A stretch of DNA of 20,000 nucleotides from an uncultured virus (IMG/VR IMGVR_UViG_3300020048_000118). Its lineage: Duplodnaviria; Heunggongvirae; Uroviricota; Caudoviricetes; Crassvirales. The notes below the pieces were generated by a model. The model made no database searches and was not told where the DNA came from. It worked only from the letters and a program-made list of their open reading frames with translations. A program made the position numbers and the translations under genes. The stretch is from the IMG/VR virus record IMGVR_UViG_3300020048_000118; one strand, 5' to 3'. This document shows, one piece after another, positions 1,866-19,476 of this stretch (positions are counted from its first letter, which is position 1; the number at the start of each line of letters is the position of its first letter).

Positions 1866-1874
1866 CGAGTGATA

Positions 1875-3308: not shown

Positions 3309-3309
3309 G

Positions 3310-3678
3310 TTAGTTTAGATATGCCTTGCCGGCGAATGATGATGAAAAAGTTATTGTTAAATTGTTTACGTCAATGAAATGAACGTCTCCTTCGACCTCG
3401 TTGTTTGCCGAGTCGACAACGCTCACTGATGGGAACTTGTCTAGCCCGTGGCTAACGTTCCATGTACTAGACGGAGCTCCTTGTGTGAACACAAAGTTCT
3501 TGTCCGTCCCTAATGCAGATATAGTTACAATGCCCTCGCCAGAGCCAGGACTGATGGTAATGTTAGCGCCGGCAACAATCTTAGACACGTACTTTGCGTT
3601 GACACGCTTTAGTATGTAGTCTATAGATTTCCTTACATCAATTAAGTATTCGGAGTATTTGGTTGGCGGCCTAAACAT
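3310..3678 (-). CDS. Small virion protein or fibre connector, 122 aa
   Basis: IVAGANITISP fibre-like motif and a C-terminal FTQ..PSSTWNVSHGL.KFPSVSVVD domain. Preceded by a TATCTTTG box. Confidence 0.75.
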   Translation of the reverse strand: MFRPPTKYSEYLIDVRKSIDYILKRVNAKYVSKIVAGANITISPGSGEGIVTISALGTDKNFVFTQGAPSSTWNVSHGLDKFPSVSVVDSANNEVEGDVHFIDVNNLTITFSSSFAGKAYLN

Positions 3679-3683
3679 TTACA

Positions 3684-3691
3684 CAAAGATA
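3684..3691 (-). promoter_or_regulatory. Bacteroidota -7 promoter box TATCTTTG, 5 nt before ATG 3678
   Basis: Exact match to TAnnTTTG; intergenic. Confidence 0.7.
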
Positions 3692-3709
3692 ACCAACTAT
3701 TGCGTTAGT

Positions 3710-3979
3710 TTACTTCTTTGTTGATTTTCCGTTTGACCCCTGCCTTGCTCGGTTTTTTGACTTATTCTCGAGCACCATCTTGCCATCTTTTTTGTGGCTC
3801 AAGTCAAGAGATTTTGAAGCTCTCTTGCCGTAGATACCTCTCTCTCGTGCCTCTGCGTTCAGCTCACTGCGATACGCTACGCGTTTCGCGGTAGACTGGT
3901 ATGCCTTCTCCTTAGAGTAGTCACGCCCTGTGGCCTTGTTACTGCCCGGCCTAGTGTTTTTCCCTGTAATCTTTGCCAT
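3710..3979 (-). CDS. Basic protein, degenerate HNH-like, 89 aa
   Basis: RDYSKEKAYQ...DLSHKKDGKMVLENKSKNRAR resembles small phage HNH-like proteins (D.SH...NRAR). Confidence 0.6.
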   Translation of the reverse strand: MAKITGKNTRPGSNKATGRDYSKEKAYQSTAKRVAYRSELNAEARERGIYGKRASKSLDLSHKKDGKMVLENKSKNRARQGSNGKSTKK

Positions 3980-4061
3980 CCAAGTACTCTCCTATAATGT
4001 ATGAAATTCCAATCGTAAAGGTAATGAATAATAGCCCGAACAAGAATCCCTCGAGCATCAT
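3951..4061 (-). CDS. 36-aa single-TM protein (MMLEGFLFGLLFITFTIGISYIIGEYLDGKDYREKH)
   Basis: Translated by hand. Start overlaps the upstream stop (TAATG). One hydrophobic segment. Confidence 0.6.
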   Translation of the reverse strand: MMLEGFLFGLLFITFTIGISYIIGEYLDGKDYREKH

Positions 4062-4207
4062 TATTTCTTCTTAGCTGTCTTCGCTGACTGTTTGAATGCT
4101 TTCGCTGTCGGTGCACCCTTGGTGCCCGGCTTTCTCATTGTCTCACCGCTACCGGCTGCAATGCGCTTCTTCTTAGCGTTAATGTTTGCGTAAAGTCCGT
4201 TTTTCAT
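4061..4207 (-). CDS. 48-aa Lys-rich phage protein (MKNGLYANINAKKKRIAAGSGETMRKPGTKGAPTAKAFKQSAKTAKKK)
   Basis: Translated by hand. ATGA overlap with the upstream gene. The GLYANI.AK..RI..GSGE.MRK motif is familiar from aquatic phages. Confidence 0.8.
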   Translation of the reverse strand: MKNGLYANINAKKKRIAAGSGETMRKPGTKGAPTAKAFKQSAKTAKKK

Positions 4208-4326
4208 CCTTGTCTGTTATATGGCTTTGAGCTGTTGTGCTTGTTAGCGTGCTTGGTGTGCCTGCGCAATTTCTTGCGTGGCTTTGCTCTGAAGGTAGAG
4301 ACGTTTGATTTTACCTTGGCCGCCAT
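4204..4326 (-). CDS. 40-aa highly basic protein (MAAKVKSNVSTFRAKPRKKLRRHTKHANKHNSSKPYNRQG)
   Basis: Translated by hand. TGATG overlap upstream and ATGA overlap downstream. Confidence 0.75.
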   Translation of the reverse strand: MAAKVKSNVSTFRAKPRKKLRRHTKHANKHNSSKPYNRQG

Positions 4327-4505
4327 CAGTTCTTTTTAAATATCCCTTTGATGTAATAGATACTTGCCAATACCCCTGACACGATTCCGATCAGGCCAAC
4401 TACCAATGAAATGATAGGCTGCCACGACGTGGCGAAAGATGCTACGGCTGCTACACCAGAGACGGTGGCAAGCGTGTTAGCTACTGAGTCAGTTTGTTGA
4501 ATCAT
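4326..4505 (-). CDS. Putative holin, 59 aa (MIQQTDSVANTLATVSGVAAVASFATSWQPIISLVVGLIGIVSGVLASIYYIKGIFKKN)
   Basis: Two hydrophobic segments and a basic C-terminus. Coupled to both neighbours and located downstream of fibre genes. Confidence 0.6.
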   Translation of the reverse strand: MIQQTDSVANTLATVSGVAAVASFATSWQPIISLVVGLIGIVSGVLASIYYIKGIFKKN

Positions 4506-4651
4506 TGCTCTAACTCTCCAAATTCTGGCTGTTCGTTTACAACTTCAATTGCCTTTACGATATTCGTAACCTCTACTAGGTTAAAGCAACCCTTTAATAC
4601 GGCTATATTCATAGCCTCGGCAATTACTTGTTTTGCTGTACTTATGTCCAT
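4502..4651 (-). CDS. 49-aa hypothetical protein (MDISTAKQVIAEAMNIAVLKGCFNLVEVTNIVKAIEVVNEQPEFGELEQ)
   Basis: Translated by hand. Fills the gap and overlaps both neighbours. Confidence 0.7.
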   Translation of the reverse strand: MDISTAKQVIAEAMNIAVLKGCFNLVEVTNIVKAIEVVNEQPEFGELEQ

Positions 4652-4968
4652 GGGAGTGGCGTATTTTCTGGTGAAACAGGTGGGTTGATCTGTGAATCGA
4701 TCTGTCCCTGGATTGACTCCTCGTAGTTGGCCACGGTGTCAGGCCCAAGTACTGACTTGATCCATCCGATAACGATATCATTTGTCAACTCTTCGTAAGG
4801 GATAAAGTTGTCTACGTTCACTGTGCTGAACATTGACGAGTCCGAGATGCTAGAAGAGTACTCTCCGTCAACACCGGTCACATCATAGTTTGCAATTACT
4901 ACATAGTCTTTCTCACCGTCAATCTCTTGAGTGAATAGCTGATTTACTGTCCAGGTATAAGTTGTCAT
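4642..4968 (-). CDS. Fibre-associated protein (possible fibre chaperone), 108 aa
   Basis: TYTWTV...FIPYEELT..IVIGWIKSVLG...QINPP...LPW pattern, commonly seen directly downstream of phage fibre genes. TAATG-coupled to the fibre gene. Confidence 0.75.
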   Translation of the reverse strand: MTTYTWTVNQLFTQEIDGEKDYVVIANYDVTGVDGEYSSSISDSSMFSTVNVDNFIPYEELTNDIVIGWIKSVLGPDTVANYEESIQGQIDSQINPPVSPENTPLPWT

Positions 4969-6800
4969 TATGCTTTTAATAAGATCTTGTATGCTGTTCC
5001 GTTAATTCTCACACTCCAAGTTGCATCAGTTACTACTGTCTCTGATGTTACTGCTCCTGCTGGAGTCCCTGTGCTACCTACTACAAATTGATTATTTGCA
5101 GTTGCTACTGCATCTTTACCAAGAATAGTAGAACCACTAAAGTTTCCCGATTGAGTATTGAAACCTAAAGCAGTATTATTGGCTCCTGATGTATTTAAAT
5201 TTAAAGCGCTCAATCCAATTGCTGTGTTACTTGCACCCGTTGTGTTTGACGATAAAGCACCATATCCTAAAGCAGTATTATTGGCTCCTGTTGTGTTTGC
5301 TGCTAGTGCAGATAAACCTACTGCAGTATTATTATTTCCTGTTGAAAGAGTTAATGCCTGATAACCTACAGCAGTGATGCCTGTTCCACTTGTGTTTGCG
5401 TTTGCCGCCTGATAACCTATTGCTGTGTTGTTAGAGGCTGTGTTTGCCGAAAGTGCAGAAGTACCTAAAGCGGTATTATTTGCTCCAGTTATGTTGTCTT
5501 TTAAAGCACTAGCACCAATTGCAGTATTACTTGATGCAGTAGTATTATTTAATAAAGCCTGATTACCTACAGCAGTATTAACTGTTCCTGTTGTATTTAA
5601 TTGAAGTGTATTAGAACCTACTGCTGTATTGTTAGATGCAGTGTTTGTTCTTAATGCTAAATAACCAAGAGCAGTAAGACCCGTCCCACTTGTATTAGTC
5701 AAAGCAGCTTCATAACCTATGGCAATGTTGTTGGATGCAGTGTTATTATATAAAGCAACAGTTCCTATAGCGGTATTATTCGCTCCTGACGTATTAGAAA
5801 ATAATGCCCTATCTCCTAGAGCCGTATTGTTATTACCCGTACTCAATTTCAACGCTTGATACCCTATCGCAGTTATACCCGTTCCAGTTGTATTGGTTGT
5901 AGCCGCCTCATAACCTACGGCTGTGTTGTTAGAGGCGGTATTGCCTTGTAAAGCACTAACACCAAACGCAGAATTATTACTTCCCGTAAAGTTGTTAAAA
6001 GAAGCGTTTACACCTATGGCAACATTATTAATACCAGTTGAGTTTCTAAATGCTGACCAATAACCTACTGCCGTATTACTATTACCTGTTGAATTACGTA
6101 ACGCTTGATAACCTATTGCTGTAAGGTTTGTTCCAGCCGTATTGGTAATAAGAGCACTATCGCCAAATGCCGTGTTTCCTGCTACGCTACCGCCACCTAA
6201 ATTGAAAACACTACCCGCATCATTTACTTGCAAACTTGAAAGTCCCGCACTATTCTGCACCAAAAGCGATGTCGTGGCGGATGTTGATCCGCTGCCTACT
6301 ACCTGTAATTTAGCCGTACCCGTAATTGTATTGATACCTACGTTTCCTGTACTCCTTTTAATAAATACAGTCGTACTCAACAAAGTTCCTGCATCATTAT
6401 AAGCACGTACAGCAAAATCACTACCTGCATTAGAACCACTTTCAGCAGTATTGTTAACGTATAATCCGAATCTTTGTAATCCTGCTGTACGATATGTGAT
6501 AATTTTACTCTGTCCTGCATCACCATCCATTACCATGCGTGTAGTAGCAGCAGTGCTTTTAAGATGTAAAATACCTAAAGGAGTAGTAGTACCAATCCCC
6601 ACCCTTTTATTGGCGTTGTCCCAATTCAAGCCAGTTGCCCCACCGATCTGCAATGCAGTGGTGGAGATGCTAAGCATTGTATCGTTTCCGGCACCGTCAG
6701 ATAGTGCCTTTAATGATGCTGAAAGTGCAGCGTTGTCTCCAAACTTTATTAACCCAGAGTATGTGTTCTGAGGAAGTAATCCGATTAAACTTGTTCCCAT
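4968..6800 (-). CDS. Fibre/adhesin with about 14-aa NNTA(I/V/L)G..AL..NT(T/S)G beta-roll repeats; probable start 6800 (610 aa)
   Basis: More than 20 tandem repeats. The start was moved from 6875 to MGTSLIG because a TATCTTTG box lies 4 nt upstream of it and a separate ORF occupies 6818-6958. Confidence 0.85.
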   Translation of the reverse strand: MGTSLIGLLPQNTYSGLIKFGDNAALSASLKALSDGAGNDTMLSISTTALQIGGATGLNWDNANKRVGIGTTTPLGILHLKSTAATTRMVMDGDAGQSKIITYRTAGLQRFGLYVNNTAESGSNAGSDFAVRAYNDAGTLLSTTVFIKRSTGNVGINTITGTAKLQVVGSGSTSATTSLLVQNSAGLSSLQVNDAGSVFNLGGGSVAGNTAFGDSALITNTAGTNLTAIGYQALRNSTGNSNTAVGYWSAFRNSTGINNVAIGVNASFNNFTGSNNSAFGVSALQGNTASNNTAVGYEAATTNTTGTGITAIGYQALKLSTGNNNTALGDRALFSNTSGANNTAIGTVALYNNTASNNIAIGYEAALTNTSGTGLTALGYLALRTNTASNNTAVGSNTLQLNTTGTVNTAVGNQALLNNTTASSNTAIGASALKDNITGANNTALGTSALSANTASNNTAIGYQAANANTSGTGITAVGYQALTLSTGNNNTAVGLSALAANTTGANNTALGYGALSSNTTGASNTAIGLSALNLNTSGANNTALGFNTQSGNFSGSTILGKDAVATANNQFVVGSTGTPAGAVTSETVVTDATWSVRINGTAYKILLKA

Positions 6801-6804
6801 TGTA

Positions 6805-6812
6805 CAAAGATA
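6805..6812 (-). promoter_or_regulatory. -7 box TATCTTTG, 4 nt before ATG 6800
   Basis: TAnnTTTG match. Confidence 0.75.
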
Positions 6813-6817
6813 ACAAT

Positions 6818-6958
6818 TTAACAGACATTCCACGGAGTGGAGACAGAGCTCCAAGCAACCGAAGATAATTCCCACGCAGTATTAGCAAAGCAAGATCCTG
6901 GAGGATAAGATCCAACAAGGCTAGCCCTTCCTACGTATATCCCTATCGATATGATCAT
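6818..6958 (-). CDS. 46-aa protein (MIISIGIYVGRASLVGSYPPGSCFANTAWELSSVAWSSVSTPWNVC); possible spike-base-binding adaptor
   Basis: Translated by hand. Starts 1 nt after the spike-base stop. Alternating hydrophobic N-terminus and a W-x6-W-x6-W tail. Confidence 0.6.
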   Translation of the reverse strand: MIISIGIYVGRASLVGSYPPGSCFANTAWELSSVAWSSVSTPWNVC

Positions 6959-6959
6959 C

Positions 6960-7217
6960 TTACCAAAGGGCTACGATGCTTGTCGCACTTGTTCCTGTAG
7001 CGTACACACGTGTAACGTTTACTGGGATAAAAGAACCACCAAGTACACCGGTAAATGTAACTGTATCTCCGCCAATTGTGTCAACGGTCAAGTCACCAGA
7101 ACCACCTACGTACAATACGCAGCCATTGTTGCTGGTGCCTCCAGATACTGATGGAATGTCTACTGTGTTTGATGGAGTTACCGCAGCGGCACGTCCAGCT
7201 TGTAGTTTAAAATTCAT
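6960..7217 (-). CDS. Head spike base-like protein (RcGTA Rcc01079-like), 85 aa
   Basis: AAAVTPS...LYVGGSGDLTV...GGDTVTF.GV..GSFIPV.VTRVYATGTSATSIVALW matches the family pattern as I recall it. Confidence 0.75.
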   Translation of the reverse strand: MNFKLQAGRAAAVTPSNTVDIPSVSGGTSNNGCVLYVGGSGDLTVDTIGGDTVTFTGVLGGSFIPVNVTRVYATGTSATSIVALW

Positions 7218-7221
7218 ATTG

Positions 7222-7229
7222 CAAATATA
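7222..7229 (-). promoter_or_regulatory. -7 box TATATTTG, 4 nt before ATG 7217
   Basis: TAnnTTTG match. Confidence 0.75.
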
Positions 7230-7257
7230 ATGATATTATACGACTCTGTCACATAAT

Positions 7258-7419
7258 CTACTTCTTGGTGTCTTTTGAGTAAGGCACCAGCTTGTTCAGC
7301 TTTTCCTGCCTCACGTCGCAACCGCAATTCTCTCCGAAGATGCTCTTTACCAGCATCTCGATGCCGGTGGCCTTGGTAATGGCGGCTACGGTGTCGCCCA
7401 ATCCCTTTTGCTTGTCCAT
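7258..7419 (-). CDS. 53-aa phage protein (MDKQKGLGDTVAAITKATGIEMLVKSIFGENCGCDVRQEKLNKLVPYSKDTKK)
   Basis: Translated by hand. The GLGDT...TKATGI...CGC..R.EKLN motif is familiar from phages. Preceded by TATTTTTG-N4-ATG. Confidence 0.8.
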   Translation of the reverse strand: MDKQKGLGDTVAAITKATGIEMLVKSIFGENCGCDVRQEKLNKLVPYSKDTKK

Positions 7420-7423
7420 GTAA

Positions 7424-7442
7424 CAAAAATAGGCTAAATTTG
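7424..7442. promoter_or_regulatory. Back-to-back -7 boxes: TATTTTTG (minus, 7424-7431) and TAAATTTG (plus, 7435-7442)
   Basis: Both match TAnnTTTG, and each points toward one gene of the divergent pair. Confidence 0.65.
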
Positions 7443-7486
7443 TTAATCTTTTCGTACCAAAGGTACGACAAGATTACTAAAATTAG
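7434..7486. repeat. 53-nt imperfect inverted repeat (operator or leader hairpin)
   Basis: Core TAATCTT-T-TCGTACC-AAA-GGTACGA-C-AAGATTA (7444-7476). The symmetry extends to 7434/7486 with few mismatches. Confidence 0.75.
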
Positions 7487-7492
7487 ACTCAA

Positions 7493-7960
7493 ATGGACTC
7501 AATTGAAATGGCCCGGTACGTCAGGTACCTGCCGATTATTAAAAGACTTTACATGGAGAAGTATGACCTGTCCTCCACACAGGTCGATATCCTGATCTTC
7601 ATCCACGGTACACGGACATTCCGCCTAAGAGTGCTGTACGACTTCGCGTCTACCATGAAGTGGCAGGCAAGGCTCTTCTCGGACATGAAGTCTCGTGGAT
7701 TTATTAAGTTCCACAAGGACTCGTCCCGTAAGCTCGGTGTTATCTACCAGTGCTCTGTCAAGACAGACAAGATAATGAAGGAATTGTTTGATCTGGTACT
7801 AGAGCAGACCAAGTTCTCAGATGATCCTGCTGAGAACCCGATCCACAAGAGAGAAAATTACACGCAGAAGTACCACTCCCTTTTCATGAAGAGGATCAAT
7901 CTAGAACGAGAACAACGTCCCGCTCAAGTATTATATGATACTGACGACTCTGAATTCTAA
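7493..7960 (+). CDS. Putative winged-helix (MarR-like) DNA-binding protein, 155 aa
   Basis: KYDLSSTQVDILIFIH...FSDMKSRGFI...GVIYQCSVKT resembles a wHTH. It is the only plus-strand gene in the late arm, and its 3' end overlaps groES by 65 nt. Confidence 0.6.
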   Translation: MDSIEMARYVRYLPIIKRLYMEKYDLSSTQVDILIFIHGTRTFRLRVLYDFASTMKWQARLFSDMKSRGFIKFHKDSSRKLGVIYQCSVKTDKIMKELFDLVLEQTKFSDDPAENPIHKRENYTQKYHSLFMKRINLEREQRPAQVLYDTDDSEF

Positions 7961-8159
7961 CGCCGTGGCCAGCGCGTCTATCGTAGTATACGATAGACTC
8001 ACTCGCTATGTCAGATACAACATCCCCGCCCACGTGTACTACGTGGGCCTTGCCGTACCTGAGCTCGTTCTCATCGTCGTTTGTCATGATCAGACCTGAC
8101 TGAGACTTGGTCTCCTCAAATATCGGATCAATCACGATGTACTTTCCTATAGCTCTCAT
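7896..8159 (-). CDS. groES: Co-chaperonin GroES (cpn10), 87 aa
   Basis: MRAIGKYIVIDP..EETKSQSGLIM (mobile loop)...VVHVG...IILERDVVLV. ATGA-coupled to groEL. Confidence 0.85.
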   Translation of the reverse strand: MRAIGKYIVIDPIFEETKSQSGLIMTNDDENELRYGKAHVVHVGGDVVSDIASESIVYYDRRAGHGVRIQSRQYHIILERDVVLVLD

Positions 8160-9727
8160 TTTGCTCTTACGTTAGTAATGATACAGTTGGTGCTCAAGAT
8201 CGTTGTTGCAACGCTGACAGCGTTCTCCAGAGCACTCTTGGTAACCTTTAGCGGGTCGATGATGCCCATCTCGATCATATTTCCTACAACACCCTCTTTC
8301 ACGTCGAAGCCGTAACCGAAACTATTTTGATAGTTTAGGGCAATGTCACCCTTTACCTCGTTCGGGTCATACCCGCCGTTCTCTAGGATCGTGTTGAATG
8401 GCTGCTGCAGTGCGTACTTGATGATGCTCTTAGCTGTAGAGCATCCGCAGATCTCACCGGCTATGTTCAGCAAAGCAATACCACCACCAGGCAGAATTCC
8501 GCCCTCCATCGCTGCCTTGGTCGCATACACTGCGTCCTCGACACGGTCCCTCTTCTCCTTCATCTCGACATCGCTCTGCGCTCCGACGTAGATAACGCCA
8601 ACGCCGCCCGCAAGGTTAGCGAGCCTCTCCTCCAAGAACTTCTTCAGTCCCTCGTTGGTAGCCTCTGCCAAGTTATTGCGGATGCCCTCAATCCTCATCG
8701 ATAGATCGTCAGACAGATCGTTGTCGGTGATAATGATCGTAGACTCCTTTCCGACCACCACCTTCTGGGCATGGCCCAGGTCGGTGAATGATACAAGTCC
8801 TAAATTGTCTCCGGTTCCGTCAGAGATGAATCGTGCTCCGGTAGCGGCAGCGATGTCCTCCATGATCTCGGAACGCATCTGCCCGAAGCTCGGTGGAACG
8901 ATGGCGCATGCTTTGATCACACCCTTGAGCCTGTTAAGGTTGAGTGAGTTCAGTGCGTTCTCCGACATCTCGGCGATAATAAGTATGCTCTTTCCGCTCT
9001 GCACCACTGGTGCCAAAAGGTGCTCGATATTGTTCAATGACGTGATCTCCTGGTCAGAGATTAAGATGTAACAGTCCTCTAGGATCGCCTCGTTCTTCTT
9101 CTGGTCCGTCACGAAGTACTTTGACATCCATCCGCGCCCAAGCTTCATGCCAGATACCACCTCAGAGTAAGTCTTTGAGCTTTGAGACGTCTCAACAGTT
9201 ACCACACCGTCTTTACCGACCATGCTGTAAGCGTCTGAAATGATCTGCCCTAGTTCTGGGTCATTGTTGGCGGAGATCGTGGCTACAGAGGCCATAGAAT
9301 CGTCTGTAACGGGGATAGCCATGCTGTCCAATGCCTGTGCAACTGACAGTGCTAGCTCTTTTACCTCTCTCAACACCTTTGTTGGGTTGTCCTCGGCCTT
9401 CATAAACTGCTGTGAGCCATGAATCAGACCCTGTGTTAGCACAATCGAGGTAGTGGTACCGTCACCAGCAGCTGTTGCCGTCTTCTCGGATGCCTCTTTT
9501 ACCATTTGTACCGCAAGGTTCTGCGTTGGGTCGTCCAAAACAATGGACCTTGCAACACTTACACCGTCTTTTGTGATGTGGATACCGTGTGTGTACTGGT
9601 CTGACTCGATCAGAACGGTCTGTCCACGTGCACCCAAGGTGCTCTTGACGGCATTTGCTATAATGTCTATACCAGACACTAGCTTTTCACGGGCCTCGGC
9701 CCCAAATTCAACTTGTTTAACGATCAT
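8156..9727 (-). CDS. groEL: Chaperonin GroEL (cpn60); probable start 9727 (523 aa)
   Basis: Motifs AVKSTLGARG, ITKDGVSVA, AGDGTTT, VATISANND, ERLANLAGGVGVIYVGA, DRVEDA, GIIDPLKVTKSALENA. No GGM tail. The ORF-track start at 9787 would run through a terminator and a promoter. Confidence 0.97.
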   Translation of the reverse strand: MIVKQVEFGAEAREKLVSGIDIIANAVKSTLGARGQTVLIESDQYTHGIHITKDGVSVARSIVLDDPTQNLAVQMVKEASEKTATAAGDGTTTSIVLTQGLIHGSQQFMKAEDNPTKVLREVKELALSVAQALDSMAIPVTDDSMASVATISANNDPELGQIISDAYSMVGKDGVVTVETSQSSKTYSEVVSGMKLGRGWMSKYFVTDQKKNEAILEDCYILISDQEITSLNNIEHLLAPVVQSGKSILIIAEMSENALNSLNLNRLKGVIKACAIVPPSFGQMRSEIMEDIAAATGARFISDGTGDNLGLVSFTDLGHAQKVVVGKESTIIITDNDLSDDLSMRIEGIRNNLAEATNEGLKKFLEERLANLAGGVGVIYVGAQSDVEMKEKRDRVEDAVYATKAAMEGGILPGGGIALLNIAGEICGCSTAKSIIKYALQQPFNTILENGGYDPNEVKGDIALNYQNSFGYGFDVKEGVVGNMIEMGIIDPLKVTKSALENAVSVATTILSTNCIITNVRAK

Positions 9728-9744
9728 ATTTGATTTAATTTGTG

Positions 9745-9752
9745 CAAATATA
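9745..9752 (-). promoter_or_regulatory. -7 box TATATTTG for groEL-groES (17 nt before ATG, A-rich leader)
   Basis: TAnnTTTG match immediately downstream of a terminator. Confidence 0.75.
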
Positions 9753-9780
9753 AACAAAAAAGGGACCATTGGCCCCCTTT
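9753..9780 (-). terminator. Intrinsic terminator
   Basis: Minus strand reads AAAGGGGGCC-AAT-GGTCCCTTTTTTGTTT. Confidence 0.75.
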
Positions 9781-9799
9781 CTGTCAAATTGTCGTAAAA

Positions 9800-9925
9800 T
9801 TACTTCTTTTTAGTGATTACACCCTTGGCAATCAATACATCTTTCTTGGTTACCTTGCCGTCCTTGTTCATGTCAGGGAAGGATTTCTTCGCAGCCTTTC
9901 CGGCGCTCTTCATTACTTTTTTCAT
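9800..9925 (-). CDS. 41-aa basic protein with EF-hand-like loop (MKKVMKSAGKAAKKSFPDMNKDGKVTKKDVLIAKGVITKKK)
   Basis: Translated by hand. D-x-N-x-D-G-x-V-T-x-x-D loop. ATGA-coupled. Confidence 0.75.
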   Translation of the reverse strand: MKKVMKSAGKAAKKSFPDMNKDGKVTKKDVLIAKGVITKKK

Positions 9926-10095
9926 TTCTTTTTTATTTTTATAGTGTCAGTTGCAACAGCCTTTACAAAGGTTCTGTTCTTGCCCTTTGGCTTTAAGTTC
10001 GGATCTCTTGTGATATTAAACGCAGCAACGCTGTCCTGGTAGCTCTTTGACGGTGCACTCAATTTGTACACGTTTGTCTTCTTTGGAGGAGTCAT
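9922..10095 (-). CDS. 57-aa basic hypothetical protein (...KKTNVYKLSAPSKSYQDSVAAFNITRDPNLKPKGKNRTFVKAVATDTIKIKKK)
   Basis: Translated by hand. TATCTTTG-N4-ATG upstream. Confidence 0.7.
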   Translation of the reverse strand: MTPPKKTNVYKLSAPSKSYQDSVAAFNITRDPNLKPKGKNRTFVKAVATDTIKIKKK

Positions 10096-10099
10096 AGTA

Positions 10100-10107
10100 C
10101 AAAGATA
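10100..10107 (-). promoter_or_regulatory. -7 box TATCTTTG, 4 nt before ATG 10095
   Basis: TAnnTTTG match. Confidence 0.7.
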
Positions 10108-10108
10108 A

Positions 10109-10696
10109 TTATAAATCTTTACTCTCGATCAATGTGTACGTGAAGCTGTTCCCATGCATCTTGGCCGATTTCTCGACAATAACCATGAATGCAGCGAAAT
10201 CTTTTATTCTCTTGAACACTTGGCATCCATGCGACCATTCGCCAATAAGGACGGAGTCCGCTCCAGCATGGTGGATATTGATACCATCAAGGTTGCTGTC
10301 AACGATCTTGTCTGTGTCGTACTCTAGATCCTTGTCGGCGTCCCTGTACAAGCGTAGCTTTCCCTTCTGCTTCAACGCACGGTACTTGCCTTGGTGTAGT
10401 CCAATCATGTGGCTACCCGGATATTGTCCCGGCACAACTCTCGCAGTTCCTCGTCCGTTATTTCCACGAAGCATTGGATCCTTTCCTGGGTCCGTGGTCG
10501 CAGACCAACTGAAGAACTTCCATACACCGCCGTCCTTGTAAGAGATCGTCATCCAATCGTCAAAAGCGTTAGTAACTGCGTTACCAACAGTTGAATTTCT
10601 GATACCAATAATGTTGACGTTGAAGTCTCCATTCTCAAAATACTTGTGACCCAATTTATAGCAAGCAGCCATGACGGTCTCTCTTGTTAGCTCCAT
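10109..10696 (-). CDS. Putative endolysin, L,D-transpeptidase (YkuD)-like Cys peptidase, 195 aa
   Basis: NIIGIR...NAFDD...TTDPG...GINIHHAG...WSHGCQV contains the His...S-H-G-C catalytic signature. Confidence 0.7.
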   Translation of the reverse strand: MELTRETVMAACYKLGHKYFENGDFNVNIIGIRNSTVGNAVTNAFDDWMTISYKDGGVWKFFSWSATTDPGKDPMLRGNNGRGTARVVPGQYPGSHMIGLHQGKYRALKQKGKLRLYRDADKDLEYDTDKIVDSNLDGINIHHAGADSVLIGEWSHGCQVFKRIKDFAAFMVIVEKSAKMHGNSFTYTLIESKDL

Positions 10697-10760: not shown

Positions 10761-10970
10761 TGTCGATTTTCGGTGTCTCTACTCTATATATATAAAAACT
10801 GTATTCTATATATATTTTTTTTTATTACTAATGAACAGAGAAAAAACGACACAAAAGAAATAAGATATTAAAGATCAATTAGTTAACCCATGTCACCTAC
10901 AGTGTCACTTTAAGTAGAATCGACACTTGTCAACACAAAACCGACACTTGTCCACAAATATCGACACAAA
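10761..10970. repeat. Origin-like non-coding region: AT-rich tract plus CGACAC iterons and DnaA-box-like 9-mers
   Basis: CGACAC at 10847, 10921, 10942 and 10962. TTGTCAACA at 10927 and TTGTCCACA at 10948. TATATA and poly-T tracts at about 10784-10832. Confidence 0.55.
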
Positions 10971-10994
10971 AAAAGAGCTTTTTAGGGCTCTTTT
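10968..10994 (-). terminator. Intrinsic terminator, possibly bidirectional
   Basis: AAAAGAGC/GCTCTTTT stem with a T-tract on the minus strand, downstream of gene 11016-11189. Confidence 0.7.
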
Positions 10995-11015
10995 AATTAA
11001 GGTGGTCGAATTTTA

Positions 11016-11189
11016 CTACTTACCGCAGCTGCCTTTCACCTTCATGTTGTCCTTCATCTTCGATGCCATTGTCATGGCTTCTGCCATCATCATGGTCTTT
11101 TTCATCTGCTTCATCTGTGACTTGGCCTCGGCCATTTTAGCAATGCCAGACATCTGTGGTGGCATCGGATTGTTTAGTGGTTTCTTCAT
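11016..11189 (-). CDS. 57-aa Met/Lys-rich protein (MKKPLNNPMPPQMSGIAKMAEAKSQMKQMKKTMMMAEAMTMASKMKDNMKVKGSCGK)
   Basis: Translated by hand. Promoter box at 11194-11201 and a terminator downstream. Confidence 0.75.
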   Translation of the reverse strand: MKKPLNNPMPPQMSGIAKMAEAKSQMKQMKKTMMMAEAMTMASKMKDNMKVKGSCGK

Positions 11190-11193
11190 AATG

Positions 11194-11201
11194 CAAAGAT
11201 A
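11194..11201 (-). promoter_or_regulatory. -7 box TATCTTTG, 4 nt before ATG 11189
   Basis: TAnnTTTG match. Confidence 0.7.
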
Positions 11202-11205
11202 GGGA

Positions 11206-11340
11206 CTACCACATGAACGTGATACGGAAGAAAAGTAAGTTTATGTCGATCTCGTTTGTCTCTCCGGGGTAGTTAGACTCAAAGTACTCGATCCCAAGTA
11301 AGATCGCGTCCGGTACAAGTAATGATATTTCTATAGCCAT
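11206..11340 (-). CDS. 44-aa protein (MAIEISLLVPDAILLGIEYFESNYPGETNEIDINLLFFRITFMW)
   Basis: Translated by hand. TATATTTG-N4-ATG upstream. Beta-strand-like pattern with a terminal Trp. Confidence 0.65.
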   Translation of the reverse strand: MAIEISLLVPDAILLGIEYFESNYPGETNEIDINLLFFRITFMW

Positions 11341-11344
11341 GTGG

Positions 11345-11352
11345 CAAATATA
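11345..11352 (-). promoter_or_regulatory. -7 box TATATTTG, 4 nt before ATG 11340
   Basis: TAnnTTTG match. Confidence 0.7.
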
Positions 11353-11459
11353 GATATAAGGCGCCAGACTTATAAGTGCCAATTATCAACCTACAGGTTA
11401 ATAATCGACCATGTGGTTTATACCTATGAGTATAATACCAGGAACTAGATATGCTGAGG

Positions 11460-11640
11460 TTTTGGGTAATACCCCCATATTGCGTCACGCCGGCCGCGGG
11501 GAAAACCGATTATTTTTGCCCCATGGGTTGTCGGTGTGTCGGCCTTGCCCCAAATTTTTGGCCTTTTGCCCGTGCGCTCCGCATGGGCTAACAGCCCGCC
11601 CGCTCCCTAGGTGGGCGCCCCGTCATGCTAAGGAAACTGC
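11460..11640. other. GC-rich non-coding segment at the strand switch; possible genome terminus or packaging site
   Basis: Abrupt GC rise, G/C runs alternating with A/T runs, and short palindromes (GGGTAATACCC, GGGCTAACAGCCC). Lies between the divergent arms. Confidence 0.4.
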
Positions 11641-16047: not shown

Positions 16048-16247
16048 AGACACGCTTGTTGAAGAAATTAAAGAAACGATACGTGTACGCATGGATAGGT
16101 GATAAGCTTATCGCATGGGACAAGAAGAAGGACGAGGAGGTTACACGATATCAGTGCACGACTTACTGGCTCATACGCACTGCGTGTGGCCTTGGAGTCG
16201 GACAGAAATACTTAAATAGAATTATATGGAAAGCATCACAACGATAG
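16044..16247 (+). CDS. Basic hypothetical protein, 67 aa
   Basis: MKTRLLKKLKKRY start; ATGA-coupled. Confidence 0.75.
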   Translation: MKTRLLKKLKKRYVYAWIGDKLIAWDKKKDEEVTRYQCTTYWLIRTACGLGVGQKYLNRIIWKASQR

Positions 16248-16396
16248 TACTAATCATTTTAGCGTCGATGCCACACCCGAGCGGTGGGTACAGGTACGCA
16301 TGCAAGGACACCACAGGAAAGACCTACAGCCTGATGATGTTGGAAGAGAAAAATGTAGGGGACACAGTAAAAATAAACCAATGCTCAACGCACTAA
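16226..16396 (+). CDS. 56-aa hypothetical protein (MESITTIVLIILASMPHPSGGYRYACKDTTGKTYSLMMLEEKNVGDTVKINQCSTH)
   Basis: Translated by hand. Fills the gap with short overlaps. Confidence 0.6.
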   Translation: MESITTIVLIILASMPHPSGGYRYACKDTTGKTYSLMMLEEKNVGDTVKINQCSTH

Positions 16397-16545
16397 TCAC
16401 AGCACTAATTGTAATCATCGGCCTTTTCTTTGTAGCATGGGCGATCTACTCACCAATGTCAATCGTTCTAATCCTCGGAGTACTGGGAGGCATTGGATTC
16501 GTTCGTTTCACCTACCTTACAGTAAAATACTACAGAGCACGATGA
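16381..16545 (+). CDS. 54-aa two-TM membrane protein (MLNALITALIVIIGLFF...)
   Basis: Hydrophobic part of ORF-track entry 16300..16545; start placed at 16381. Confidence 0.7.
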   Translation: MLNALITALIVIIGLFFVAWAIYSPMSIVLILGVLGGIGFVRFTYLTVKYYRAR

Positions 16546-16757
16546 GACAGGCAAAAAGATACGCATGGGTACTATCGAATGTAGACGGAATCGTCTGCGC
16601 ATTCGACTCAGAGCCTTCTGAGGCAGACCTGTCATACACACTTGACATTTACCACGAAGAAGAGGGCAAGTTCGCAATGACACACCCAGATACATACACT
16701 TGGACAAGCGATCACCAGTCCGTAGAATACACACTAATTAAAACAGACTTACTATGA
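16542..16757 (+). CDS. Hypothetical protein, 71 aa (MRQAKRYAWVLS...)
   Basis: ATGA-coupled on both sides. Confidence 0.75.
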   Translation: MRQAKRYAWVLSNVDGIVCAFDSEPSEADLSYTLDIYHEEEGKFAMTHPDTYTWTSDHQSVEYTLIKTDLL

Positions 16758-16930
16758 CAAACAATAAACAACAGACGGCAGTGGAGTGGTTCAGTTTATT
16801 ATTATCCATCATTTGCTTTTTAATTTTTGCGTATGAGATGGAGAACGACAGAGATTTTTACACATGGCTTTGGTTATTTAATGCCATGATTTTTTATACA
16901 AACTATCTAAAATTTAATTGGAACAAATGA
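16754..16930 (+). CDS. Cassette gene 1, 58 aa, membrane (MTNNKQQTAVEWFSLLLSIICFLIFAY...)
   Basis: Translated by hand. ATGA-coupled on both sides. Confidence 0.8.
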   Translation: MTNNKQQTAVEWFSLLLSIICFLIFAYEMENDRDFYTWLWLFNAMIFYTNYLKFNWNK

Positions 16931-17100
16931 CAAACATACAAAAAACTGGACTAAAAGAGCATATTGAATGGCTCAAAAAACAATACCAAGAAAGTATCAA
17001 TAATGGTTATAGCCAAAGTGTAATTACTGCTTTCCGATTGTCCATAAAACACGCTAAATTAATGCTTGAGAACGAAACCTACGGAGGAGGTGAGCAATGA
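16927..17100 (+). CDS. Cassette gene 2, 57 aa (MTNIQKT...ENETYGGGEQ)
   Basis: Frame from the ORF track; start at the ATGA overlap. Confidence 0.8.
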   Translation: MTNIQKTGLKEHIEWLKKQYQESINNGYSQSVITAFRLSIKHAKLMLENETYGGGEQ

Positions 17101-17327
17101 CAAACAATAAAAAACAAACTCCAGTGAAATTAATCATTGAAGCCTTGGACATTGAATGCAAATCAAGAGGTATGAATGTAAATTGGGATATGTATTTAGA
17201 AATGGAGAAGCAGGAGATGATTGAATTTGCTAATGATTTATTGGCACAAAATGACACCAATTATACTGGAGTGCCGAATTTAGCAGAACAATACTACGAA
17301 CAAACCTACGGAGGAGGTAACAAATGA
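17097..17327 (+). CDS. Cassette gene 3, 76 aa (MTNNKKQT...EMEKQE...AEQYYEQTYGGGNK)
   Basis: In the ORF track; carries the family motifs. Confidence 0.85.
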   Translation: MTNNKKQTPVKLIIEALDIECKSRGMNVNWDMYLEMEKQEMIEFANDLLAQNDTNYTGVPNLAEQYYEQTYGGGNK

Positions 17328-17527
17328 TAATAACTATTAACAGAACTAACGAAGAAAGACAAACTGCAATTGTAACAATTGACACAAAGTCTTGTAATTA
17401 TACTTATGCTATTAGAGAAGCACTTGAATTAGCATTAAAACTTGATGGATATAGTAATGATACTATTGATGAAGTTTTTGAGAGAAACCAAGATTGCAAA
17501 AAGGAGGCGAGCAATGACAAACAATAA
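17324..17527 (+). CDS. Cassette gene 4, 67 aa, unrelated interior
   Basis: In the ORF track. Reads through the junction repeat in another frame (...EASNDKQ). Confidence 0.75.
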   Translation: MIITINRTNEERQTAIVTIDTKSCNYTYAIREALELALKLDGYSNDTIDEVFERNQDCKKEASNDKQ

Positions 17528-17705
17528 ACAACAACCAAACGCATACTTAATATTCTTTTTATCATTGATATTTATATATTTAATGGTATCATTTGGAGTA
17601 TGGGATTTCAACCCATCTCATTGGGATAAAGCATTAAGAATGACATTTGCATTTGTTGCACCTATAATGGCTATGATGTGTGTAGCATTTACCAAAATAA
17701 ATTGA
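17514..17705 (+). CDS. Cassette gene 5, 63 aa, two-TM (MTNNKQQPNAYLIFF...WDFNPSHW...)
   Basis: Start placed at the repeat ATG 17514. Confidence 0.8.
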   Translation: MTNNKQQPNAYLIFFLSLIFIYLMVSFGVWDFNPSHWDKALRMTFAFVAPIMAMMCVAFTKIN

Positions 17706-17711
17706 TATAAA

Positions 17712-18035
17712 ATGACAAACAATAAACAACAAACGGAGATTAATGCAGTTGAGTACCTTGATAAGGTTAATCAATTTGCAAAGGAAAACAACACGGGTAA
17801 GCCAAAACAACAAACTGCAATTGAGTGGTTGGAACAAGAAATGTTAAAACCAAATTTAAGTATGAAAGAAATACTTGAACAAGCCAAAGAAATGGAGAAG
17901 CAAATGACAATAAAACTTTACGCTGATTATGAAAATTATTTAGAAGAAGCATTCAAAAACCAATGCGGTGGTCAAGCGGTGATATTGTCATTTCAAGAAT
18001 TTTACGAACAAACCTACGGAGGAGGTGAGCAATGA
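17712..18035 (+). CDS. Cassette gene 6, 107 aa (two KQQT motifs, AKEMEKQ, YEQTYGGGEQ)
   Basis: In the ORF track. Confidence 0.85.
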   Translation: MTNNKQQTEINAVEYLDKVNQFAKENNTGKPKQQTAIEWLEQEMLKPNLSMKEILEQAKEMEKQMTIKLYADYENYLEEAFKNQCGGQAVILSFQEFYEQTYGGGEQ

Positions 18036-18412
18036 GCCTTGACTTAAACAAACTTGAAAACAAACTTGACGAAGCATTAATTAAGGAAACAACTGAAACA
18101 CTAACTAAATTTTTAAACGATAAAAGAATGACAAACAATGAACAACAAACAACACTGCAAATTTTAATCAATGGACTTATTGATAGAAAGAAAAACATAA
18201 TTGAAAATGCAGACAGTATGCCTAATGATATGCTTGAAGGCGGTGTTATGGCATTTGAAAGTGCTATTGACTTAGCGCAATCTTTGCTTCAAATGGAGAA
18301 GGAAAGAATTATTGATGCTCATTATGAAGGGCAATGCAATCAAACTGAAGGGTATCCTTTACAAATAGCAGAACAATACTATAACGAAACATACGGAGAT
18401 GACAAACAATAA
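18032..18412 (+). CDS. Cassette gene 7, 126 aa (32-aa leader fused to an internal MTNNEQQT unit)
   Basis: In the ORF track. Internal repeat at 18128. Confidence 0.85.
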   Translation: MSLDLNKLENKLDEALIKETTETLTKFLNDKRMTNNEQQTTLQILINGLIDRKKNIIENADSMPNDMLEGGVMAFESAIDLAQSLLQMEKERIIDAHYEGQCNQTEGYPLQIAEQYYNETYGDDKQ

Positions 18413-18743
18413 ACAACAAACGGCAGTGGAGTGGTACATTGAAGAACTTGAATACAAGGGAGATTTGCGAGAAACTCCATCGATAAGAAACATTCAATTA
18501 AACATTGATACATCTGATTATATGGAATTGAAAGTACAAGCAAAAGAAATGTACCAGAACGAAATAGATCAATCTTATCGCGATGGTTTTGAATTTGCTT
18601 TAATTAATGAATGCGCCAAAGAATCTACCAGCGCGGCTAGTTCCTATTCTGACGGCTACAAACAAGGTTATAACCGAGCTATTGAATTAACAAAATGGGC
18701 AATATCAAACTTAATACCACCACACAATGAGACGCTTACTTGA
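18399..18743 (+). CDS. Cassette gene 8, 114 aa (MTNNKQQTAVEW...AKEM...YSDGYKQGYNRA)
   Basis: In the ORF track. Confidence 0.85.
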   Translation: MTNNKQQTAVEWYIEELEYKGDLRETPSIRNIQLNIDTSDYMELKVQAKEMYQNEIDQSYRDGFEFALINECAKESTSAASSYSDGYKQGYNRAIELTKWAISNLIPPHNETLT

Positions 18744-18909
18744 GATACTGGCAATAGCACTAACGCTGTTGACCGCCCTTGGAATGGTTGCATTCTGCAT
18801 CTACAACCCAGTCGCTTGCATGGTCATCACGCTGACCGTCAGCGGATGCCTTTTAACTTACTCAGCAGTACAAGTAATTAAATACAAAATCAATGAGCAA
18901 AATAATTAA
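18727..18909 (+). CDS. 60-aa two-TM membrane protein
   Basis: In the ORF track; hydrophobic. Confidence 0.7.
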   Translation: MRRLLEILAIALTLLTALGMVAFCIYNPVACMVITLTVSGCLLTYSAVQVIKYKINEQNN

Positions 18910-19039
18910 TCTAATCAAGAACTTATTTAATATAGAGACGGAGGTGGCTGAGGCCACCCCGTATGAGTTTGAGTATGACCGCCCGATTGAAGGGTTTAAT
19001 GAATTTCACGACAACTTAAAGACATGGAGAAAGAATTAA
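18893..19039 (+). CDS. 48-aa hypothetical protein (MSKIINLIKNLFNIETEVAEATPYEFEYDRPIEGFNEFHDNLKTWRKN)
   Basis: Translated by hand. Fills the gap. Confidence 0.7.
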   Translation: MSKIINLIKNLFNIETEVAEATPYEFEYDRPIEGFNEFHDNLKTWRKN

Positions 19040-19476
19040 TCAAATACTTTAACGATCGCCCGTACAATAACTTTGCAGGCAATGACGTGGCAAGCATCAT
19101 CAGTAAGATGTGTGAGCCCAAGCGAAAGAGCCTTGGCATGACATTTATGGGTACAGAGGACAGAAGAGAACTGATAGAGATCATTGAGGCAGTAGAGATC
19201 GTGACAGGCATGAACTTCGACGACTTTAATGTCAAGACCAGAACACAACAACACGTAGAGGCCCGCTTCCTGTTCATGCACTTTGTATACACAAGGATGA
19301 GACTCACGCTGAAGATGATCGGTGAGTTGATGGGAGGACGAGACCACTCAACTGTGATCCACGGGGTGCAGTTGGTGGCCGACTGGATTGCTAACAAGAA
19401 ATTTTACACAAGAGAAAACAAACTAATCGATGACATTACAAGAAATTTGGAACGAAGCGCTGAGACACAAGGATAA
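19024..19476 (+). CDS. Stand-alone DnaA C-terminal (domain IV) HTH protein, 150 aa
   Basis: KTRTQQHVEARFLFMHF...LTLKMIGELMGGRDHSTVIHG matches the DnaA signature R...AR...MY...SL..IG..FGGRDHTTVIHA. No AAA+ domain. Confidence 0.85.
   Translation: MEKELIKYFNDRPYNNFAGNDVASIISKMCEPKRKSLGMTFMGTEDRRELIEIIEAVEIVTGMNFDDFNVKTRTQQHVEARFLFMHFVYTRMRLTLKMIGELMGGRDHSTVIHGVQLVADWIANKKFYTRENKLIDDITRNLERSAETQG

Follow-up and report, generated by a model that had tools for sequence, protein, structure and literature searches.

The closest known system to the locus described here is PeSL-mediated modular shuffling. PeSL (promoter early stem-loop) cassettes occur in the hyperplastic regions of T4-type phages, where they are intergenic and combine a sigma-70 early promoter with a stem-loop terminator, and their mini-circles have been physically shown (Arbiol 2010, PMC2839356; Comeau 2014, PMC4122927). 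Our subject is an array of eight small genes, or cassettes, at 16754-18743 of a 20,000-nucleotide (nt) stretch from an uncultured virus of the Crassvirales (IMG/VR record IMGVR_UViG_3300020048_000118); the whole stretch is called the window and all coordinates refer to it unless a relative is named. As in the PeSL case, a plastic region holds small genes of unknown function with short repeated motifs at their borders, motif-bounded insertions, deletions and replacements distinguish close relatives, and inter-motif recombination is the proposed driver. Unlike the PeSL elements, the motifs here are translated, lie inside open reading frames (ORFs) that overlap through ATGA, come without stem-loop or promoter excess, and include a third motif within the gene that swaps half-genes. 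We propose that homologous recombination at these short translated boundary motifs probably shuffles a shared pool of cassettes.

The origin of phage mosaics has long been open, the choice lying between homologous exchange at short conserved boundary sequences and illegitimate joining at random places on which selection then acts. Our proposal resembles the modular theory of lambdoid phages, which invokes homologous recombination at short conserved sequences of module junctions; boundary sequences are not found at most phage mosaic junctions (both points as given in a review, PMC3029335). Unlike in the lambdoid case, the motifs in the window stand at 64 of 77 segment ends and inside coding sequence. 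The locus is a case with boundary sequences at most junctions, which are translated and appear to act within genes as well, and it makes the question of mosaic origin testable by crosses, motif recoding and recombinase knock-outs. The T-even gp38 adhesins offer a further likeness, one protein being built of interchangeable variable segments between conserved motifs; in these adhesins, hypervariable segments lie between conserved glycine-rich motifs that form the structural core (Trojet 2011, PMC3157838). The gp38 protein is a single-copy tail-fibre adhesin, unlike the cassette proteins, which have 57-126 amino acids (aa), stand in tandem arrays in a presumably early region and have no match to tail proteins.

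Integron cassettes likewise form arrays of small genes with varied functions and a content that differs between close relatives; they are mostly promoterless and read from a common promoter, and the cassettes of the window may be so too. Unlike integrons, the present locus has no IntI among the ORFs scanned, no attC hairpin and no attI or Pc element, its junctions are coding, and exchange extends inside genes. In polymorphic toxins of the CdiA/Rhs type, a conserved demarcation motif before the variable C-terminal domain is the crossover point, and the likeness is that a conserved peptide motif and its DNA separate interchangeable modules. Those toxins are very large bacterial proteins with paired immunity genes, and no similarity to them and no toxin signature was seen here. 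Our search of the full-text literature, subscription journals being outside its coverage, found neither the peptide motifs nor such cassettes. The present locus differs in that the adaptors are translated, act on whole genes and inside genes, come without apparent regulatory elements and belong to a very large undescribed family.

Cassettes and Boundary Motifs

The interval 16754-18743 is filled by eight overlapping ORFs on the plus strand, and its G+C content (GC) is 0.32-0.34 over 17001-18500 against 0.44-0.47 on either side. The cassettes are referred to as g1 to g8:

16754-16930, plus strand: g1, a 37-nt head (encoding MTNNKQQTAVEW) joined to a small hydrophobic protein
16927-17100, plus strand: g2, variant head MTNIQKT, soluble interior, full tail YGGGEQ before the stop codon, ATGA overlap
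17097-17327, plus strand: g3, the canonical form, with head, N module, centre (about 17197-17214), C module and the tail variant YGGGNK before the stop codon
17324-17527, plus strand: g4, headless, ending in NDKQ
17514-17705, plus strand: g5, head joined to a protein with two hydrophobic segments
17712-18035, plus strand: g6, head, 31-aa extension, internal head (17805-17832), N module, centre (17884-17901), C module, tail
18032-18412, plus strand: g7, 32-aa extension (MSLDLNKLE...), internal head (18128-18147), N module, centre (18288-18305), C module, shortened tail YGDDKQ with its stop codon within the head of g8
18399-18743, plus strand: g8, the same 37-nt head as g1, N module, centre variant (18536-18553), a C module of another class without tail

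One common domain architecture is found in g3, g6, g7 and g8, and in many family representatives the domain starts at residue 33, as it does in g7. Strongly hydrophobic windows of 19 residues number one in g1 and two in g5; the other six cassettes have none and are soluble. The endings NDKQ of g4 and DDKQ of g7 arise because each stop codon falls within the head of the next gene.

The head comprises 20-37 nt (ATGACAAACAATAAACAACAAACGGCAGTGGAGTGG). Its 20-mer has six matches with at most three mismatches (16754, 17097, 17514, 17712, 18128 and 18399) where 0.01 are expected, none of 200 shuffles reached six, and a repeat finder added weaker copies at 17793-17832 and 16926-16944. The copies at 16754 and 18399 agree at 38 of 40 nt, with one mismatch within the first 37. 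The tail (...TACTACAACGAAACCTACGGAGGAGGTGAGCAATGA, encoding YYNETYGGGEQ and the stop codon) is present as a 26-mer in identical copies at 17075-17100 and 18010-18035 and with three mismatches at 17302 (expected number 0), and degenerate copies lie at 17502 and 18372-18412. The centre repeat GCCAAAGAAATGGAGAAG, which encodes AKEMEK in the main family, has copies at 17200, 17890 and 18291 and a variant at 18536; TAGCAGAACAATACTA is found at both 17281 and 18366. The cassettes are linked through ATGA overlaps of start and stop codons.

These features agree with most of an earlier note on the stretch, made from the letters alone. Its eight packed small genes in an AT-richer island, repeated head, tail identical at two places with variants elsewhere, common TAGCAGAACAATACTA, ATGA junctions, recurrent (AK)EMEK, NDKQ and DDKQ endings, range of interiors from soluble to two-transmembrane, and fusions (seen as the internal heads of g6 and g7) were all found in the sequence and ORFs. 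Its claim that the head copies at 16754 and 18399 bound the array stands as to their near identity, but the copies belong to the outermost genes, g1 and g8, and do not mark the island limits. Measured against the array-less relative L136, the island starts with the ATGA at 16754-16757 and ends with that at 18727-18730.

All comparative data are from short-read metagenome assemblies; relatives named L followed by a number are viral contigs, and X1 and X4 are sequencing runs. The exact head 20-mer was present in at least 135 viral-contig stretches and the exact tail 24-mer in at least 125. After 121 distinct tail junctions, the exact head comes next in 27 and other genes in the remainder, while 139 distinct head contexts comprise 54 after one of three tail forms, 6 after another GGAGG-like sequence and 79 without a tail upstream. 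Head and tail also occur on unrelated proteins (membrane, lipoprotein-like, HExxH and MKLYTEE-type). The whole of g1 is 87% identical to a gene of L157, where it lies within another array. In L103 and L131, at 162-878 of L047 and at 3001-3267 of L077, the head MTNNKQQT was seen on a protein with an HExxH motif, on a 238-aa protein and on lipoprotein-like proteins with a lipobox-like LIGMISGC.

Codon Use and Selection

Codon fixation in the motifs was compared with the interiors of the same genes, the score for each motif being taken solely from loci chosen by other means than that motif. The codons and their shares are:

A of AKEMEK, GCC: motif 93%, interiors 6%
Second E of AKEMEK, GAG: motif 75%, interiors 13%
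Second K of AKEMEK, AAG: motif 76%, interiors 20%
T8 of the head, ACG: motif 82%, interiors 12%
E of TAVEW, GAG: motif 93%, interiors 13%
T of the tail, ACC: motif 83%, interiors 10%
Y of the tail, TAC: motif 94-100%, interiors 34%

The stretch coding for TAVEW lies 24-36 nt into the gene. Protein constraint alone, which had been named earlier as a way to account for identical junction DNA without recombination, is insufficient, because the motif codons are rare in the interiors of the same genes (GCC, for example, at 93% versus 6%). When the interiors were compared with relatives of 86-98% identity, the pooled ratio of nonsynonymous to synonymous differences (pN/pS) was 0.30, and it was below 1 in 21 of 22 comparisons. 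The cassette interiors are genuine genes under purifying selection.

Patchwork Structure and Seams

When 16500-19100 was searched by blastn against all fetched loci, 43 distinct matches had lengths of 60 nt or more and identities of 85% or more. The array breaks up into 14 or more segments that match different contigs at 85-98% identity, and the modules have their best relatives on different contigs; in g6, four segments match best to different contigs. The array contains 77 match ends, of which 64 are within motif intervals that with 5 nt of padding take up 28.9% of it (binomial p 7e-23; the ends are not independent), and 4 of the other 13 lie at the ATGA of 18726-18731. The nearest relatives of the segments are:

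17097-17209, g3 N module: L054 at 90%; L054, L255, L007 and L135 in the range 85-90%
17198-17327, g3 C module: L049 at 90%
17313-17507, g4: L046 at 98.5%
17711-17831, g6 extension: L078 at 96%
17805-17896, g6 N module: L023 and L009 at 95%; L023, L009 and L052 in the range 90-96%
17884-18021, g6 C module: L057 at 93%; L057, L089 and L092 in the range 92-93%
18000-18150, g7 extension: L247, L104, L245 and L079 at 91-92%
18127-18304, g7 N module: L210 at 93%
18292-18398, g7 C module: L191 at 95%
18387-18551, g8 N module: L084 at 95%; L084, L101 and L074 in the range 91-95%, each beside a different C module
18538-18684, g8 C part: L139 at 76%
18664-18730, g8 3' end: L101 at 92.5%

In L046 the homologue of g4 is followed directly by a gene of the g7 type, with the breakpoint at AGGAGGYGAGCAATGA. 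Since these two genes adjoin there, g5 and g6 are, relative to L046, an insertion in the window that lies between two copies of AGGAGGYGAGCAATGA.

Half-gene Combinations and the Proposed Shared Pool

From 192 ORFs bearing the head or another motif, the 127 with a centre motif were cut at the centre and the resulting modules were clustered at 60% identity. These 127 proteins gave 76 N clusters, 63 C clusters and 113 combinations; at least two C partners were found for 21 of the 76 N clusters and at least two N partners for 19 of the 63 C clusters, and one C module pairs with 24 N partners. In pairs with the same N module and different C modules, the tract of identity in 72 of 73 cases stops 6-29 nt past the point where the centre motif starts, and in pairs with the same C module and different N modules it stops from -15 to +8 nt of that point in 617 of 629, a count that is taken from pairs that are not independent and is partly circular because the modules were defined by cutting at the centre motif. 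Ends that are spread across the centre motif fit homologous exchange better than cleavage at one bond. When both modules differ, the centre 18-mer is 86% identical and the 69 nt on each side are 60% identical, against 59% for shuffled DNA; this is conserved DNA at mosaic junctions between otherwise unrelated sequence, as the boundary-sequence model supposes.

The cassettes have a GC of 0.346 +/- 0.021 and the long neighbouring ORFs 0.32-0.49, with a correlation of 0.21, and cassette GC is below backbone GC in 34 of 40 loci. The commonest neighbour families are the DnaA_C helix-turn-helix protein (26 loci), DnaB helicase (21), YqaJ exonuclease (12), ERF (8) and C5 methylase (8). The arrays therefore sit in regions of replication and recombination genes, as judged from DnaA_C, DnaB, YqaJ and ERF. 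Five large phage records (G001-G005, behind L004, L030, L044, L190 and L013) have lengths of 104-166 kb, and four of them are at least 94% complete; each has 2-4 family matches in one or two clusters, and two have direct terminal repeats.

Relatives With Shared Flanks

Four viral contigs were found by a protein search with the DnaA_C protein downstream of the array and a fifth by blastn of the array. The flanking genes of the window are:

16542-16757, plus strand: upstream flank gene of 71 aa, with its TGA overlapping the ATG of the first cassette
18727-18909, plus strand: gene for a 60-aa hydrophobic protein, a movable unit between CAATGAG/ATGA sites
18893-19476, plus strand: downstream flank, a 48-aa gene followed by the DnaA_C helix-turn-helix gene (19024-19476; PF08299, E 4.3e-15)

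The upstream stretch from 16500 is 89-96% identical in L136, L139 and L023, and the downstream flank (18893-19476) is 97% identical in L136, L137 and L138. The content between the flanks is as follows:

L136, flanks 96-97% on both sides: no array; the ATGA of the upstream gene directly starts the 60-aa hydrophobic gene
L023, upstream genes 94%: at least five other cassettes
L139, flanks 78-90% on both sides: one 139-aa gene, in common with the window only in the g8 C module
L137, downstream about 97%: a different 81-aa cassette; 60-aa gene absent
L138, downstream about 97%: a 115-aa fusion cassette, a 41-aa lipoprotein-like gene and a 32-nt remnant of the g8 3' end; 60-aa gene absent

The same genes in the same order, which would argue against cassette exchange, were thus not found in related phages, as all five differ. 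The 60-aa gene is present in L136, L077 and L197 and absent from L137, L138 and L139, and in L077 cassettes come after it, not before. Parts of the stretch are contained in 20 sequencing runs, and the contigs of 4 runs were compared with the window. A contig of run X4 has a joint 18724>18891 at depth 139.9, which is the backbone depth, with a side of 61 and 7 shared letters, and corresponds to the L138 arrangement; the other 14 of the 15 listed joints have sides of only 20-30 nt, are flagged as unreliable and are probably other cassettes with the same motifs. A second indel against L136 was seen at 16247-16380 of the window (1810-1817 of L136), where L136 has a fused ORF of 63 aa and the window has ORFs of 56 and 81 aa.

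Proposed Recombination at the Motifs and Other Explanations

In our proposal, the locus would take cassettes from a pool common to many phages, each cassette carrying short translated adaptors, namely head, tail and, in the main family, centre. Since the motifs are near-identical DNA between unrelated interiors, crossover could take place within them by homologous recombination or strand annealing, the partners being co-infecting phages or copies within one array. Every exchange would leave an intact gene because the motifs are in frame. The expected products are whole-cassette swaps, swaps of N or C halves, in-frame fusions of the g6 and g7 kind, deletions and duplications, and annealing at identity islands of 18-40 nt would give such products as were found here.

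The likely catalyst in this lineage is a phage annealing protein of the Sak type together with an exonuclease. A single-strand annealing recombinase, which the earlier note had suggested to look for, was found in the 96-97% identical relative L136: its Sak gene (4639-5223) matched PF06378 with 122.7 bits (cut-off 22.3; E 1.2e-35) and PHROG 659 with E 2e-55, and the adjoining ORF matched PF12684 (PDDEXK) and the exonuclease VIII PHROG. Both genes lie about 2.7 kb downstream of the locus, which is just past the window end, and from L136 we infer that the phage of the window has Sak as well. Rad52-like phage recombinases, Sak and Erf included, recombine short and diverged homologies far better than RecA, according to one study (De Paepe 2014, PMC3945230). 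The L136 regions 4639-5954 and 10957-11592, which lie beyond the end of the window, also hold, besides Sak and exonuclease, a GIY-YIG homing endonuclease, a primase-helicase, an SNF2-type helicase and a ribonucleotide reductase. Spread driven by a homing endonuclease was considered and set aside, the only such enzyme seen being about 8 kb away in L136. A diversity-generating retroelement was rejected too, as no reverse transcriptase was matched in the ORFs scanned and the variation is whole-module replacement.

More tentatively, the motifs may be kept at the nucleotide level as recombination linkers, which would amount to natural in-frame DNA shuffling across unrelated phage backbones of one habitat. 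If this were true, such phages would draw on a common library of cassettes and half-gene modules from which new small proteins are built combinatorially, and no other natural case would illustrate the boundary-sequence model of phage mosaicism as clearly as this locus, where the model would operate at sub-gene scale.

Several observations weigh against recombination at the motifs as the source of the patchwork. The whole-array indel against L136 has only ATGA in common, and motif recombination does not account for it; exchange via the homologous flanking genes or an older illegitimate event explains this difference better. No recombination event was seen directly, nor any deletion or circular form, the evidence being contigs only, with sides of 20-30 nt at most joints. 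The exact g3, g4, g6, g7 and g8 proteins each occur on only 2 contigs. The listed X1 unitigs end at or near motifs (about 16762, 17111, 17289, 18032, 18139, 18428 and 18541), so the cassette order depends on the original assembly, and with short-read assemblies some junctions could be chimeras formed at shared repeats. The 60% clustering level yielded a single four-gamete square, and the partial circularity of the tract-end count and the dependence of its pairs belong here as well. ERF, Sak and RecT were found in 0 of the 5 large phage records with the family and a RecA-like protein in 1 of the 5. Finally, the nucleotide conservation of the motifs could serve expression, the head being an A/C-rich and unstructured start region.

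This last point leads to the alternative that fares best, although we consider it rather unlikely: head and tail would be conserved as a portable region for translation start and reinitiation, with recombination as a by-product. Six folded junction and motif stretches had no conserved hairpin (z-scores -1.6 to +0.9), which together with the A/C-rich composition and the ATGA overlap suits such a role. The 79 of 139 head contexts without an upstream tail imply that the head can function whatever precedes it. Promoters or terminators belonging to single cassettes were not apparent: promoter and terminator scans of the array were at chance level, no plus-strand TANNTTTG box lies within 16754-18743, and sigma-70-like matches there were at chance level. 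However, an expression adaptor leaves the rare-codon fixation in AKEMEK and TAVEW unexplained, and does not by itself explain the clustering of breakpoints at all three motifs. The GGAGG of the tail, within GGAGGAGG, resembles a Shine-Dalgarno sequence and is unlikely to function as one, as none of 33 backbone genes in the window has a Shine-Dalgarno sequence upstream. For the same reason the translational coupling through GGAGG that the earlier note had supposed is doubtful. Across loci, a Shine-Dalgarno sequence was found upstream of 61 of 188 family ORFs versus 12 of 261 long ORFs.

Assembly artefact, by which short-read assemblers would jump between phages at shared repeats of 20-40 nt, is improbable as the explanation of the mosaic. 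It draws on the Logan k=31 unitigs that stop at or near several motifs, as listed above, and on the scarcity of the exact g6, g7 and g8 proteins. Against it, run X1, which contains 89% of the sampled words of the stretch and may be its sample of origin, has one k=31 unitig across 17289-18032 (g4-g5-g6) and another across 18110-18428 (g7 N module, centre, C module and tail), each with 0 differences, so both mosaics are present in the reads. The same mosaic proteins also recur on many contigs: examples among the word-sharing candidates of the family are found on 54, 21 and 12, and the exact g1, g2 and g5 proteins on 9, 13 and 8. In addition, the motifs are shorter than the usual final assembly k-mers and read lengths.

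We think it slightly less probable still that a dedicated site-specific system is at work, in which an unrecognised recombinase or nuclease would read head and tail as sites in the manner of integrase and attC. The motifs are highly uniform over hundreds of contigs and many neighbouring ORFs are without known function, as such a system would allow. But no Pfam or PHROGs match to an integrase, transposase or reverse transcriptase was obtained in the 24 window ORFs and 13 L136 ORFs scanned, the folded junctions have no hairpin, centre breakpoints are spread over 6-29 nt instead of one position, and exchange also takes place at the internal motif and at plain ATGA/CAATGAG. Of the integron-like, integrase-free system proposed in the earlier note, the integrase-free part holds for the ORFs scanned, whereas a dedicated system is not borne out (no attC-like fold, no cassette promoter signal, spread breakpoints); as neither an integrase nor a hairpin site was found, "integron-like" serves only as an analogy.

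The least probable explanation is a family of ordinary tandem paralogues that diverged in place and kept the motifs by protein constraint only, which would suit the architecture common to g3, g6, g7 and g8 and the model placing the conserved motifs in three helices, and which is contradicted by synonymous sites fixed on rare codons, interiors across clusters no more alike than shuffled DNA, the nearest relative of each module on a different contig, close relatives with different cassettes, and head and tail on unrelated proteins.

Protein Family

The consensus of a 48-sequence alignment reads MTNNKQQTAVEWL...QAKEMEKE.I...YYNETYGGGEQ. The family profile detected 6775 clusters (50% identity) at E <= 0.001 and 741 at E <= 1e-10, and 7433 of 8000 word-sharing candidates scored E <= 1e-5. 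None of the 120 candidates listed has a Pfam domain, and the few names among these 120 other than "hypothetical protein" look like mis-annotations. In the best 150 representatives, 45 start exactly with MTNNKQQ, 88 contain AKEMEK and 120 have the tail in their last 8 residues, and some carry two or three heads, an arrangement like that of g6 and g7.

In the AF2 model of g3 (pLDDT 77.9), helices span residues 9-23, 31-52 and 62-70, with one of the three motifs in each. Foldseek with this model gave no match at E <= 0.001 in PDB or BFVD, and the protein Atlas gave only unnamed viral clusters. For the cassette proteins, Pfam and PHROGs gave only marginal matches below the cut-offs, none of them to a tail protein, and PADLOC only two marginal ones (E 0.004 and 0.0065). 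Judging from the model and the hydrophobic windows, the cassette proteins are predicted to be small three-helix or membrane proteins. Because of their genome position and turnover, an early accessory role may be guessed, with low confidence, in host takeover or counter-defence. The modular build of a very large family without a Pfam domain suggests rapid adaptation of early phage functions.

The window and locus DNA had no relative by blastn or megablast in 50,697 GenBank phage records, and tblastn of g6 and of a canonical family member found nothing in the GenBank phage collection. In bacterial and archaeal genomes of 185,579 species there were 348 pattern matches and one confirmed locus, on a contig of a metagenome-assembled genome, with no host assignment; apart from that contig, the family is seen only in viral or metagenome sequence.

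Other Genes of the Window and the Possible Host

Tail-fibre and virion proteins, GroEL and an endolysin-like protein are encoded on the minus strand (3-10696). From about 11400 the plus strand holds a series of small genes, the last of which is the DnaA_C helix-turn-helix gene at 19024-19476. We regard the island as a hyperplastic locus in the replication-side, presumably early expressed part of the phage genome.

The host is probably a Bacteroidota bacterium. This is hinted at because Shine-Dalgarno sequences are absent from all 33 backbone genes and TATCTTTG boxes stand just upstream of several minus-strand genes (minus strand 3684, 10100, 10701 and 11194), features that we take to be translation and promoter signals of the Bacteroidota type. 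TANNTTTG occurs 26 times in the window versus 16 expected. The phage has its own GroEL-type chaperonin (8156-9787, minus strand; PF00118, E 4e-59; PHROG 5725), whose nearest relatives in GenBank phages, those of Vibrio, Flavobacterium, Cellulophaga, Bacteroides and others, are less than 60% identical. Host assignment through GroEL was tried and given up, as relatives of this identity from several host genera are too scattered to identify a host. The 195-aa protein encoded at 10109-10696 on the minus strand matched PHROG 3000 and an endolysin PHROG strongly and YkuD (L,D-transpeptidase) weakly, the latter with E 0.0027, which is below the cut-off.

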